In this document: in pieces, positions 9,096 through 30,235 of the stretch
How positions within the stretch are numbered: the stretch's first letter is position 1
Layout: the number at the start of each line of letters is the position of its first letter
Source: a virus
Lineage: Duplodnaviria > Heunggongvirae > Uroviricota > Caudoviricetes
Strand: one strand, 5' to 3'
Length of the DNA: 42,110 bases
IMG/VR virus record: IMGVR_UViG_2541047875_000007
Span: 1 to 42,110 of that record
Position numbers and translations under genes: made by a program
Notes under the pieces: generated by a model
The model's database searches: none
The model's input: the letters and a program-made list of their open reading frames with translations, nothing else
What the model was told of the DNA's origin: nothing

Positions 9096-10567
9096 TCCAC
9101 CGTAAATTGAATGCCTGATTTTGAGGTATATGATCCGGATTGACTCTGCTGCTGTTGGGTATTTGTCGGTTGTTGGCTATTGCTCTGTTGTTGACTATTT
9201 GCAGCACTTGAAACCACCAAAGCATCATAAACGCGACCAGACTGACCACGTAATGAGTTATATTGGCCCTGCATTTTTCGCATTTTTGTTTCAGTAGCAG
9301 CCTTGGAATCACCGGGCTGAGGCAGGTACATTTTGGAATACTCCTGCATCTCTGGCAGAGTAATTGCTGCACCTGTTTCTGGGCGCAAAATTGCATACAA
9401 GGCGTCTCTCGCATTTACCATATATTGCTGCTCCGCTGGTGATAGGCTTAAATTTGCAATAGTCCCATCACCAAGAGAGCGATTTATTAATGCAACTCGC
9501 TTAGGGTCAATGCTTTTACTAAGCTGATTCATTGAGTCCATTGAATCTTTTAATCGCAAAGCAAATCCTGCCGCCTTCTTGGAACCCTCATTAGCCTTAT
9601 CTATGATGCTTTGCGCTTGTGGCAAGCTAATTGGTTTAATGCCATCACCAGATATAGGTTGGTTTAGTTTTCCGGCTTCCTCGCTGCCATCGGTGTAATA
9701 CTTAGTTACCGAGCCATCAGGATTGGTTTCAACCTTAAGTAATTTCTTAGCATTGGGATTAATTCCCGCCGCTGCCGCAAATGCCGCTGCACCATCTGGA
9801 TCCGCCTTTAACATTTGCGCGTACTGATTGTAATTCTGCATTGCGGCTGTTGGTGCATATGCTGACGTTAACGCATTTGCTCGGCTAATATCCTGCCCTC
9901 TCGCCTGAAGTGCTTCGCTGGCCTGATTGCTGCGGATTGTCTCTGCCAGTCTGCCTCGGTCAATCTCACGACCAGCTATCTTGTCCTGAACAGCAAACGC
10001 CTTTTCTGGCCCAAGCGCACCGAGAGACATAGTAGTCAGCATGTGTGATAACTGCTCTGGATTCTGGATACCTGTCTGAATCATCCAGTCAGCATTCGCA
10101 CCAACGCGATTTAACCTGTCCTTGTTGTCAGTAATGAATTTACTGTAGGCTTCCGGTCCCTGAGAAAGAGCGACGTTAGCCCTCATGGCTAAATCGCCCA
10201 TATCGTTACGTTGCTGATCATTAAGACCGGAAAACGCCTGTTGTGCCTGTGCAACAAACGCTGGATTTTCCTGGGCAAACTTAAATAGTCCCGATGGATC
10301 ACCAGAAGCCCATGCATCAGCGTGAACCTTATTGAACGCACTAATCGCTTTCTGTTGCTGTTCCTGATTGTAAATATCAGCAACTCCAGCCAGACCACGT
10401 AACGCGGTCAGACCAACGTTATTTGCACCTGAGCGAGCCAACTCATTGTTTTCGCGGATCAGACCAAGCGTTGCGTTAATGTCGCTTGCTTTTGGCGCAT
10501 TCTCATTTTGCGCACCAATGCCAGCCAGAAAACCACCAGAATTAATACCCTGTTGCCACGTAGCCAT
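9092..10567 (-). CDS. Ejection protein gp20
   Basis: 491-aa ORF, size and position match P22 gp20. Confidence 0.85.
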
Positions 10568-10577
10568 TGATTACCCC

Positions 10578-11270
10578 TTAAAACAGTGAACCAAGAAGAC
10601 CAAGACCGCCGCCAACAGCGGCACCAATACCAGTACCAATACCGGGAACAATGCTGCCAAGCTGTGCTCCAGCAATTGCTCCAGAGGCAGCCCCGCCTAT
10701 TGCAGATTGAAGGCCGGAAGGTCTATTAGCGTTTGCCGCCGCCAGTGCCGCGCTTTGCTGTGAAATCTGGCTCATGTTGTTGGCATATGTTTGCCCGGCG
10801 TTTGCCTGCCCCTGAAGAGCGCCAAGACCAATATTTGCCAGATTCTGGTAGTTGTTCATCTGGCCAGACAGCCACTGCTGACCAAGCGTTGGTGCGATTG
10901 TTGCTAACTGATTACTGGTTGCGGTGGAACCTAATCCACCTGTTGCTTCCGCTGCCGCCAGACTCTGATAGCGCGCCTGACCAGCAAGGTCTTTGTACTG
11001 CTGAGAGTTGTAATACTGGTTAAGCGCCTGACCTTGCCCCTCCAGAGACGATAAGTTCTCGAGGCTGCCGACATACTTCTCAGCCAGAGGAGTAAACGGT
11101 TTCAGGTTGTTCATGATGGTGTTGAACTGCTGATTTTGCAGGTCTGCGGAATACTTCTGGGCTTCTGCTGCATACTTTGCGCTTTTATCGGCTCCACCTT
11201 TCCCGCCTTTTTCAGGGCAATAAGGTTCCTCGCCGCGCAGTTTTCTGCCCAGCTTAAATGCATATAACAT
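10578..11270 (-). CDS. Ejection protein gp7
   Basis: 230-aa ORF with Gly/Ala-rich hydrophobic C-terminus; size and position match P22 gp7. Confidence 0.85.
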   Translation of the reverse strand: MLYAFKLGRKLRGEEPYCPEKGGKGGADKSAKYAAEAQKYSADLQNQQFNTIMNNLKPFTPLAEKYVGSLENLSSLEGQGQALNQYYNSQQYKDLAGQARYQSLAAAEATGGLGSTATSNQLATIAPTLGQQWLSGQMNNYQNLANIGLGALQGQANAGQTYANNMSQISQQSAALAAANANRPSGLQSAIGGAASGAIAGAQLGSIVPGIGTGIGAAVGGGLGLLGSLF

Positions 11271-11731: not shown

Positions 11732-12681
11732 TGCTCCGCGATTATCTTGATGGTTGTGGCAGTAAACGCCGCACCATTCGACTGAATGGTTAACGTGCTG
11801 CCATTTGTGGCAAGAAAGCCGTCTTTATCCACACTGAAGAACGTAGCTAACAGGATGTTATCGGTCGTTGTCGCCGAGTTGCGACTGCTTACCAGTGTGT
11901 CAGGAACAGAGCCGGAAAAGGTTAGCTGCATTGACCTGTTTGCGGTTCCGCTGGGCCACGTCCCGACAATCGACAGCTTGAAGAACAGGGTTTTGTTCTC
12001 GTTGAAAACAACCATCTTGTTGTTATCAGTATCGAAGAATGGTGCCAACGTCCCGGATGACGGCGTGAGCGTTTTCAGCAGGCTAACAAGGTTGGTCGGC
12101 GCTGTTGGAATGGTTACCGATACTCCTGAGTAAACAACCTCTGATTTCTTGCGCGTGGTGGCATACTCAAGCGCAGATATTCTTGTTGAGTGATCACCAA
12201 CTGTGCTTTGTAGCGTCGAAATACTTCCCTCTGCCGCTGTGAGCCTGGTATCAAGTGCGTTGATATCGGTTGTATTCTGAGTTATTCGCGCATCATGGTT
12301 TGCTAACTCAGATTCATTGGCAGCAATTCGCGTCTCGTGATCAGCCAGCTCTGTTTCGGCAGCCGTAATCCTTGTTTCATGATCTGCAAGAGTGCTTTCC
12401 GCTGCTGCGATTCTATGTTCATGATTGACGAGAGTTGCTTCAGCAGCAGCAATTCTGGATTCATGGTCTGCAAGGGTGACATCCTGCTCATCATTCTTCA
12501 CCTGTGCATCATAAGCCCCCTTCCCTGCTTCGTTGGCCTTGTTAGCCACGTTACCAACATCAGCACCCTGTGCGATAACGTACAGCAGATATGACTGCGA
12601 GAAGATATTGCGTGGAAGGACTGATGTGTCGAGTCGTGTAGCCTGAATGATTACCGGCTCATTGAGATTCGAATCAGCCAT
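11728..12681 (-). CDS. Tail needle protein (gp26-like) with coiled-coil repeats and an extended C-terminal domain
   Basis: N-terminus [43 protein letters not shown] matches the P22 gp26 N-terminus; repeated ADHE(S/T)RIAAAE heptad-like units; 317 aa versus about 233 in P22. Confidence 0.85.
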
Positions 12682-27829: not shown

Positions 27830-27918
27830 TTCTTAAAGCCTCCAATTACTCTCCCCCAAATAAAAAGGCCTGCGATTACCAGCAGGCCTGTTATTAGCTC
27901 AGTGATGTAGATGGTCAT
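27826..27918 (-). CDS. Putative 30-aa hydrophobic peptide, translationally coupled between the helicase and the next gene
   Basis: [30 protein letters not shown]; ATG overlaps the helicase stop (ATGA) and its stop overlaps the next ATG; not in the ORF track. Confidence 0.4.
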
Positions 27919-29291
27919 ACGTCAGCCCCTTGTGCATATCGTCTGCCACGCGCAGCAGGTGCATTTGATGCTGTGCAAATCTGTCTGGCTTCATCCTGGT
28001 CACATGCAACAAAGTGTCCGTTGCAGAACCGCTGGTAAACCGTACCAAGTGAGCCAAAACGGTTTTTCGTCACAATGATTTCAGCAAATGGCGCGGCGCT
28101 ACTGTTCTCGTCATATACAGCTTCCCGATAGAGCATGATGATTGAGTCTGCGTCCTGTTCAATGCTTCCTGAATCACGCAAATCTGCGTTTGTCGGGCGT
28201 TTGTTTGGTCGCTTCTCAACATCGCGCGAAAGCTGACTCAGGGAGATAACAGGCGTTTTCAGGTCTTTCGCCATCGCCTTCAGGCTTCCGGAGATGTGAG
28301 CAATTGCGAGGTCGTTGCGATCTGCTTTCGGCTTCTCAATCAGGCCAAGATAATCCACCATGATGAGTGACAGGTTTGGATTTTCCTGTTTGTGCCGTTC
28401 TGCGATTGAGCGTATTTCTTCGACCGATAACCGCGAGGCATCGACTACCCATACATCCAAATCTGCAAGCTGACTCATGCCGTTAGCAACGCGCGCCCAG
28501 CCTTCGTCATCCATCGATGCAGGATTTCGCAGCACACTAACCGACATCCTCCCGGCGTTGGCAATACTTCGCTCTGCAATCTGCAATGCGCTCATTTCCA
28601 TTGAGAAAATCAACACTCCGCGCCGGACGTCAGAACCAGGAATAACGCGGCTTGCAACGCCTTCGGCAATCTTCAGCGCCAGTTCGGTTTTACCCATACC
28701 GGGACGAGCGGCGATAATCACCAGGTCTTCTGCGTTCATCCCTCCGGTGATGGCGTCAAGTTCGTCGATTCCGGTCTTCAGGGTATCTGACTCTTCTCCG
28801 TTCCTCAGACGCCTGTCAAGCGTGTCAGTGTAGTCAGTGATGATTTCCCCTAACCGTACCGGTTTAACCTCGTCACGGGGCTTTCTGATGGCTGAAAGAC
28901 GCTTTACAAGTTCATCCATCGCCTGACTCGATGCGTCGATGGTTCCGCTCTGAATTGGTTCACGCATTTCATCCATGATTTCCAGCACCAGACGGCGGTG
29001 ATAGTTATCCGCGACCATTCCGGCATATCCCTTCAGGTTTGCGGCACTCGGGCAGTTTTTGCTGGTCATCAGGATTGACGTGAAATGCTCCTCTCCGCAC
29101 GCCTCGGCAACCATCAGCGCGTCGATTAAATTTCTGTTTCGCGCCTGCTTGCGGATAACCTCGAAGGCTTTCCGGTAGAGCGGAATTGAAAACGCTTCCG
29201 GCTCCAGCGTTGCCAGAACGTCGCTGGCGGTTGGAGTTAATCCACCAATCAGCAGGCCACCGATAACGCTCGCTTCGATATCCTGTCTCAT
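27915..29291 (-). CDS. Replicative DNA helicase (DnaB family; P22 gene 12-like)
   Basis: 458 aa; Walker A GMGKTE, DnaB-type motifs, typical DnaB N-terminal domain. Confidence 0.9.
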
Positions 29292-30235
29292 GCAATCCCC
29301 CTGTCTGCAAACTTCCCTTCCCGTACTCCCGTTAACGAATCTTCCCTCAACAGGTAATCAAAATCAGCCGTCCAGCCCGTGTCGTTGTCTCCGAAGTAAA
29401 ACGGCTTGGCCTGATGCACAAACGCCCTGACATACGCTCTGAAACCGTCCACGTTTGGCGTTTTCAGTTGCGGGATGATTTTCTTCAGGCGGCGTTTGCG
29501 TTTCTCGTTGACTGCAACAGCATGTGGAAGTCTGTCACCGACTTCGGTGTTGTAGGCGTTCAGGAAGGATTCGTAGTCGATTCGTTCTGCCTTGCGACGT
29601 TCAGGTTTAACCTGCCCATCGCCGCCCCCATTGGGGGGTAGGGGGGTATTATTTATATTCTTGTTAATACCTTCTTGTTCATGATGTGCGGTTGTTTGTG
29701 CGGCTTCATGTGCGCTTTCATGTGCGGAATGTGCGCTGAAAGCTGCGCCATTACTGGCTTCGTCATGTGCGGCATCATGTGCGGTTGTTTGTGCGGCATC
29801 ATGTGCGGGTAAATTGTCCATTTTTTGAGCATATTCATGGTAATTTGTGATGGTGATCACACGACCTTTTTGCTTCTCTCCATCAATGGAGATCATCCCT
29901 TCTTTCACAAAAACCTGAAGCATCCGCTCAACCTGATCACGGCTTGCTGGCTTGCCATGTCTGTCGCATAACTGAAGACCTAAATCAGCTGCTGTCACAA
30001 CCAGTTGACCGGGTTGCAGATGCCATTCATGACCTTTGAAATTCGCTTTGTATGGCTTTCTGGCGGCATTCAGGAGAAGGTTTTCCCACAGGGTGCGAAG
30101 ATAAACATCTTTCGCCCATGACTGTTTCAGAATGCTCCGGTACAACGGAATGTAACCAGTTTTCTGGTTCTCCATCCTGTTGCTCCTGCGCTCGTGTGCG
30201 GCGCTGAAATCGTAGATTTTTGCTGTATTGCTCAT
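29288..30235 (-). CDS. Replication initiator (lambda O / P22 gene 18-like) with internal His/Ala-rich low-complexity linker
   Basis: 315 aa; N-terminus [10 protein letters not shown]... resembles the lambda O N-terminus; linker [40 protein letters not shown] is encoded by the iteron repeats. Confidence 0.8.
29646..29810 (-). repeat. Putative origin of replication: about 9 direct repeats of a TGTGCG(G/C) core inside the initiator gene, flanked by an AT-rich segment (29646-29672)
   Basis: Repeats at roughly 10-12-bp spacing (CATCATGTGCGGTTGTTTGTGCGGC occurs twice); adjacent TATTATTTATATTCTTGTTAATACC; arrangement parallels lambda ori within O. Confidence 0.6.

Follow-up and report, generated by a model that had tools for sequence, protein, structure and literature searches.

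A cluster of short direct repeats and an AT-rich block beside it very probably form the replication origin of a lambdoid, P22-like Escherichia coli prophage, judging from the sequence and its relatives, and this origin would lie inside the gene for its own initiator, an O-like protein. The whole stretch of DNA analysed in this study (the window) is 42,110 nucleotides long, and the features discussed here are collected in Table 1. The general layout is well known; this version of it appears not to have been explicitly described before, and no paper describing this type of repeat was found in a literature search whose coverage was incomplete.

Table 1. Features of the putative origin and its surroundings, in window coordinates
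Feature	Position	Strand	Basis or remark
DnaB-like replicative helicase gene	27915-29291	minus	Pfam DnaB_C, E=1e-78; DnaB N-terminal domain, E=5e-13
O-like replication initiator gene, 315 aa	29288-30235	minus	ORF and Pfam Phage_rep_O
AT-rich block, putative DNA-unwinding element	29646-29685	minus	17-22% GC, A-rich coding strand
Mosaic junction between N-domain/origin module and C-terminal (helicase-partner) module	29652-29664		distal end of AT block
Repeat cluster B, four 12-bp units	29680-29727	minus	plus-strand TGTGCG starts 29685, 29697, 29709, 29721
Extra out-of-register core, 9 bp from next copy	29728-29738	minus	plus-strand TGTGCG at 29730
Central element between clusters, 22 bp	29741-29762	minus	sense GAAGCCAGTAATGGCGCAGCTT
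Repeat cluster A, four 12-bp units	29763-29810	minus	plus-strand TGTGCG starts 29766, 29778, 29790, 29802

The protein that carries the repeats matches Pfam Phage_rep_O (PF04492) over residues 20-132 (E=3e-15, 56.9 bits against a cutoff of 28.7). An N-terminal extension comes first, then a winged-helix DNA-binding domain and a linker with a composition that the repeats dictate, and last a P22/HK97-type C-terminal domain, for which the product of the adjacent DnaB-like helicase gene is, by analogy, the likely partner. Upstream of the O gene, in gene direction, are cII-like and cro-like ORFs as well as a divergent cI-like repressor, and the neighbourhood corresponds to a lambdoid prophage's early-right operon. 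An identical copy (100%) of the O gene is carried on the chromosome of E. coli FDAARGOS_1256, and genes annotated as replication protein O that are 97-98% identical are found in CUS-3, HF4s, JEP4, Kapi1 and about 50 Stx2a-converting phages. CUS-3, a close relative, is filed under Lederbergvirus. Full-length copies of the gene were present in 272 of 5426 complete E. coli genomes.

The start codon of the O gene is ambiguous (30175-30235). PGAP begins the homologue in E. coli DAM at an internal methionine (MENQK), and a start at the corresponding position 30175 has AGGAG before it and is the point from which homologues align. This start was nevertheless judged less likely because all relatives have an in-frame ATG or GTG about 20 codons upstream and because in alignments the extension pairs with the lambda O N-terminus (MTNTAKILNF), which favours the ATG at 30235. 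If the upstream start is preferred, the conserved AGGAGCAACAGGATG may simply encode RSNRM. Two further short ORFs overlap the repeats, one of 61 aa in another minus-strand frame (29653-29838) and one of 45 aa on the plus strand (29675-29812). Their compositions are His/Met/Pro-rich and Cys/Met/Gly-rich, and they are by-products of the repeats, not genes.

The initial annotation, which was made from the letters of the sequence, had described about nine TGTGCG(G/C) copies inside the O-like gene, and all nine were recovered on the plus strand (Table 1). These cores, which read CGCACA on the coding minus strand, span 29685-29808 and occupy codons 143-186, just after the DNA-binding domain; the peptide quoted for them is the correct translation of the O-like gene. 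The array holds 9 of the 21 TGTGCG(G/C) matches found on both strands of the 42-kb window, all nine of them on one strand, and the chance of such a cluster is about 3e-19 (Poisson, from the background rate and corrected for the number of windows). Tandem Repeats Finder reported two arrays of period 12, and the core-to-core spacings are 12, 12, 12, 9, 36, 12, 12 and 12 bp. The repeats had been thought to stand at helical-repeat spacing, which does not hold, since the period is 12 bp (four codons, in codon register) rather than 10.5 bp, and a 12-bp phasing does not set the sites on one face of the helix. Each unit consists of S-CGCACA-W and a 4-nt variable spacer, and the units are direct repeats with no conserved dyad.

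A set of 166 related genes was gathered from phage records, viral contigs, metagenomes and species-representative genomes; their first 600 nt fall into 127 distinct versions and their N-domains into 42, later 47, distinct proteins. These relatives carry either 3+3 or 4+4 cores. CUS-3 and E. coli DAM have CGTACA in place of the core at 29730, which the Klebsiella, Enterobacter and Sodalis relatives lack. This core is not conserved, so the conserved arrangement is 4+4 and this additional copy is probably non-functional. A possible tenth core, GCCGCACA, close to the gene's 5' end (plus strand 30195), is not conserved in relatives either and was taken to be a chance occurrence.

The length of the array varies. 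In E. coli DAM it is short of exactly one 12-bp unit, and three metagenome contigs have a 93-bp (31-residue) deletion between two CAAACAACCGCACAT stretches that leaves three cores and a 265-residue form of the protein, which may be a collapse during assembly or a real deletion. The existence of these variants suggests that the exact copy number is not essential. Most of the database entries for the N-domain (relatives of 29810-30175) are labelled partial, are 150-210 residues long and end in the repeat linker, and in several of them the repeats are translated in a different frame (PRITPRIT..., HMMPH...), which suggests that short-read assemblies often break or frameshift at the array. These proteins came from a search with a 122-residue query whose matches were mostly truncated, and the search was used for alignment depth and for evidence of assembly breaks only.

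Downstream of the repeats, in gene direction, the AT-rich segment of the initial annotation could be placed at 29646-29685, where it is the least stable 40-mer of the gene; its GC content is among the lowest 0.2-0.6% of windows of the same size in the 42 kb. The stretch CATGAACAAGAAGGTAATAACAAGAATATAAAT in it is kept across both of the main classes of core that are described below. Within it are two tandem 14-mers (repeat family D3), ATATTCTTGTTAAT at 29655-29668 and ACCTTCTTGTTCAT at 29669-29682 on the plus strand. The 14-mers loosely recall the repeated 13-mers of bacterial unwinding elements, and a third, weaker copy is found on the other side of the array at 29831-29844. GC skew was uninformative at the scale of the array. 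Directly after the AT block, at 29620-29645, is a dyad of a C-run and a G-run (sense CCCCCCAATGGGGG), which is part of the P22/HK97-type C-domain module; it also occurs in SPN9CC and Emek, whereas relatives with a lambda-type C-domain lack it.

The element between the two clusters is conserved at 90% or more at most of its positions among 51 distinct versions, including those from origins with the other type of core. This conservation may reflect a constraint on the protein or on the DNA. In its general form (sense GAAGCCAGTAATGGCGCGGCTT; GCAG in the window) the element contains a GCCA-GTAA-TGGC dyad.

Comparison with relatives indicates where the boundaries of the modules are. From 29288 to about 29662 the window is 95-96% identical to SPN9CC, mEp213, HK544, BTP1 and others, whose N-domains and repeats differ, and from 29652 to 30188 it is 80% identical to Klebsiella phage 2b, which has the other C-domain. 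Klebsiella phage 2b has a 245-residue "DNA replication protein" after O in place of the helicase; this alternative C-domain starts with the same SSENSGESSD-coding DNA as that of lambda O, and in a Yersinia phage that has it the next gene is annotated as P. The same N-module is thus paired either with a lambda-type C-domain and a P-like or DnaC-like neighbour, or with a P22/HK97-type C-domain and a DnaB-like helicase neighbour. These boundaries show that the N-domain takes the repeats and the AT block with it when modules are exchanged, and that the C-terminal domain does not. Other families of N-domain have repeats of their own at the equivalent place: TTAGCTAAAACAGCTAA or TTAGCCAAGTCGGCTAA in the HK97/SPN9CC type, two copies of TTCACCAAATCGGTAAAA in the P22/Emek type, and four copies of GTCAATCAA with an 11-nt period in Lactobacillus phage phiAT3. 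An A-rich stretch follows the repeats in all three types alike.

The core itself comes in more than one form. In eleven of the related genes every core has CG(A/C)GC instead, reading CCGCGCAT, CCGAGCAT, CCGAGCGT or CCGCGCTT and encoding Ala-His, Glu-His, Glu-Arg or Ala-Leu, so that the motif and the 12-bp register are kept and the peptide is not. The form of the core is associated with residue 80 of the protein (counting here and below from the MENQK methionine; 20 must be added for the 315-residue ORF). Residue 80 is Asp in 37 of 37 N-domain variants with CGCACA cores and His in 9 of 9 variants with CG(A/C)GC cores, an association that comes from few lineages and to which the physical linkage of N-domain and repeats contributes. 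Two more distant relatives, with one variant each, have other combinations, namely Gln with cores of the CCG-NN-GAAC type in a Pantoea relative (45% identity) and Lys with GTCGAA cores in Enterobacter phage ENT1 (47% identity). The His class appears at three separate places among the Asp class in a neighbour-joining tree calculated without the discriminating columns, which, being based on 116 residues and unbootstrapped, is suggestive only.

Other columns also split the two main classes, namely Ala62 (Ser or Thr in the other class), Arg105 (Thr or Ser) and positions 68, 97 and 98. Arg105, which is in the wing, was considered as a determinant of specificity and is unlikely to be one, because Yersinia sequences with Asp80 and Thr105 keep mostly CGCAC cores. 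One of these, Yersinia phage vB_YenM_29.18, has CGCACA three times, CGCACT twice and CGCGCA once in nt 366-500 of its O gene; this mixture may represent a relaxed or intermediate specificity.

In an AlphaFold model (mean pLDDT 78.7) the N-domain is a winged helix in which strands 95-100 and 104-109 form the wing, and the co-varying residues map to the helix at 79-91 and to the wing. Since this helix is in the recognition position, residue 80 would be at the first turn of the predicted recognition helix. A sequence search of solved structures gave no significant relative of the N-domain, and a Foldseek search of the PDB with the model returned generic winged-helix DNA binders only (E at least 0.015). 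It is tentatively proposed, as a possibility rather than a probability, that residue 80 (Asp, His, Gln or Lys) sets the middle of the core. If so, the initiator and all eight of its sites would have switched together several times, which would create replication-specificity groups among recombining prophages, with the coding frame forcing both the 12-bp phasing and an unusual geometry of the complex.

The array could have a different role, in that the repeats might bind another factor (DnaA, IHF, SeqA or a phage regulator) or titrate O for copy control and incompatibility while the origin lies elsewhere. Iteron arrays of plasmids do also serve copy control, and the conserved element between the clusters is not an iteron. 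However, there is no excess of DnaA boxes in the window (36 matches with one mismatch or fewer, where 38 would be expected), and 29640-29810 contains none; the core co-varies with the recognition helix of O itself; and the AT-rich, unwinding-type block not only adjoins the array but is inherited with it. In addition, the 42-kb window has no second comparable repeat cluster adjoining an AT-rich block. Three other tandem repeats (9153-9201, 11143-11184 and 12355-12478), with periods of 18, 21 and 42 nt and 2-3 copies, lie inside large ORFs on the minus strand, further to the left in the window. Such a role in place of an origin is therefore considered improbable.

It is also conceivable that the repeats are kept for the sake of the protein, with selection acting on a His/Ala-rich linker, either metal-binding or a flexible spacer, and with the DNA repeats being only its encoding or a relic of duplication. 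The repeats are in frame, the Ala-His dipeptide recurs, and low-complexity linkers between domains are common. However, this explanation is largely refuted by the behaviour of synonymous sites and is regarded as very unlikely. Relatives with as little as 74% N-domain identity (from Klebsiella, Enterobacter, Superficieibacter, Trabulsiella and Sodalis) have CGCACA at the same linker positions, whereas the 4-6 nt between cores drift freely, as do the residues that they encode (HDAA, HEAA, HTSA, HKAA, HNGA, HKPA, HISA and others). Among 80 units from 11 divergent representatives, the core is preceded by C or G in every case and followed by T or A in 79, while the remaining flanking positions hold less than 0.45 bits of information. 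The linker Ala codons that precede His or Gln are GCA in 80 of 80 cases in these genes, compared with 55 of 232 (24%) for Ala codons elsewhere in them. Four-fold degenerate sites of the N-domain are only 29-68% identical between the 11 representatives, which indicates that synonymous sites have largely turned over and are near saturation.

The same result was obtained when the six relatives with a 4+4 arrangement were aligned. None of the 48 core columns varies, whereas only 8 of 34 spacer columns are invariant (p=1e-14; spacer identity 57%), and at third codon positions 16 of 16 columns are invariant in the cores compared with 30 of 120 in the N-domain (p=4e-9). The cores thus stay fixed even at their two synonymous third positions, although the spacers and the amino acids encoded have drifted. 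The constraint is on the DNA, which bears out the earlier suggestion that a DNA signal has shaped the His/Ala-rich linker. Among related phages it is the DNA repeats that are conserved and the peptide that is not, the opposite of a conserved linker with unconserved repeats. The second class of core, which places Glu-Arg, Ala-Leu or Glu-His at the same positions, also speaks against selection on the peptide, as do the linkers of other O families, which are Lys/Thr/Leu-rich or Asp/Glu/Pro-rich and yet always repetitive in their DNA. Finally, a neutral, slippage-prone tandem repeat that is homogenised by unequal crossing-over and has no sequence-specific function would fit a copy number that is polymorphic in multiples of 12 bp and the many database entries that break or frameshift within the array, but it is scarcely credible, because homogenisation would also equalise the spacers whereas uniformity within and between genomes is confined to the 8-bp core, and because the two clusters, the central element and the AT block are kept across Escherichia, Klebsiella, Enterobacter, Yersinia and Sodalis hosts.

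With the array and AT block read as an origin, a mechanism can be proposed by analogy with lambda. The N-terminal winged helix of O would recognise the 8-bp S-CGCACA-W sites, which are spaced with a 12-bp period in two clusters of four. The resulting nucleoprotein complex of O and the repeats would, as in lambda, destabilise the adjoining AT block, and the C-terminal domain of O would then bring the phage DnaB-like helicase to it. Transcription of the cro-cII-O-helicase operon would pass through the origin, again as in lambda. The binding of O to the cores, the unwinding of the AT block and the loading of the helicase are all steps that we infer from such analogy. The sites are translated along with the rest of the gene: each core falls in frame as xxC-GCA-CA(T/A) and yields Ala-His or Ala-Gln, and the 12-bp period preserves the frame; the His/Ala-rich linker would thus be a by-product of the DNA signal.

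The replication module is widespread, being found in complete E. coli genomes as well as in a sizeable group of Stx2a-converting phages, and its relatives extend to Klebsiella, Enterobacter, Yersinia and Sodalis. Its initiator is treated as poorly understood in current typing schemes for Shiga-toxin phages. A place for the origin and a defining 8-bp motif provide a concrete target for work on replication and on the amplification of toxin genes after induction. The array would also account for the frequent assembly breaks and frameshifts at the O gene. For specialists the most useful by-product may be the apparent code that relates a residue of the protein to the core, since the matched series of initiator and origin variants offers a compact system in which a protein and multiple sites change specificity jointly. 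The locus also shows how a DNA signal can dictate a protein linker.

Iteron plasmids (RepA, RepE and pi) resemble the present system in having direct repeats, a winged-helix initiator, an adjoining AT-rich unwinding element and co-evolution of the repeats with the initiator. Plasmid iterons are typically about 17-22 bp long, are outside the rep gene and are bound by the two winged-helix domains of a monomer, whereas the repeats described here are short and inside the initiator gene. No sequence match or significant fold match of the N-domain to plasmid iteron initiators was found.

Among Shiga-toxin phages, the nearest described system is the Eru2 replication region (Llarena et al. 2021; Fagerlund et al. 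2022), which shares the helicase and the C-domain of O. However, the Eru2A reference protein has 273 aa, which is the length of an SPN9CC-type O, and judging by this length it probably has another N-domain. These papers describe the first protein of the region as of unknown function or weakly O-like, and the word iteron is in neither of them. A set of 48 Japanese Stx2a phages of O121:H19 has been typed as Eru2 (PMC8951638). The present O gene is carried at 97.8% identity by 48 Stx2a-converting phage records (LC616xxx), which appear to be the same 48 phages, the match being one of count and origin only.

Lambdoid origins consist of O-binding iterons and an AT-rich tract in the middle of O (PMC7466680), and it is the N-terminal part of lambda O that binds the origin (PMC2629481). 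Such a layout has been described for lambda, Stx phages, P22 and L (PMC7466680, PMC8022706). In the lambda reference record, four 18-bp iterons are annotated at O codons 117-145, and an AT-rich stretch comes after them. The likeness to lambda ori that the initial annotation had proposed is borne out by comparison, since the order of elements, their position in O, the modularity and the operon context are the same. In both, the origin is in the middle of the initiator gene, right after the Phage_rep_O winged helix, with an AT block of about 40 bp downstream of the repeats; the N-domain and origin form one exchangeable module and the C-domain another; and the gene is part of a rightward early operon, after cro and cII. 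However, there are clear differences. Lambda has four 18-bp units with internal dyad symmetry, 20-24 bp apart, whereas the array described here does not contain lambda-style repeats of 18-20 bp with internal dyad symmetry but has 8 (+1) 8-bp cores without a dyad, in a strict 12-bp period that is split by a 22-bp element. The overall similarity of the two proteins is also very low (32% identity over 69 residues, E=0.004), and the partner here is a DnaB-like helicase and not lambda P.

Close parallels are also seen with P22 (gene 18 / gene 12), HK97 and phage L (gene 18). P22 and phage L belong to the same virus group, and both have an O-like initiator that is followed by a DnaB-type helicase and has repeats inside its gene. 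Over the C-terminal domain and the last part of the AT block, identity to genes of the HK97/SPN9CC type is 95%, and those of the P22/Emek type are related more distantly. However, the N-domain and the repeats differ, with TTCACCAAATCGGTAAAA in P22, TTAGCTAAAACAGCTAA in HK97, TGTCCAACGGA in L and CCGCACA here. Gene 18 of P22 and gene 18 of phage L each carry repeats of their own, and in L these are six imprecise repeats of 11 bp that have been taken as the origin (PMC8022706). The 11-bp repeats of L are a precedent for short iterons (PMC8022706), which suggests that long iterons with dyad symmetry are a feature of lambda itself and not of the class of origins to which it belongs.
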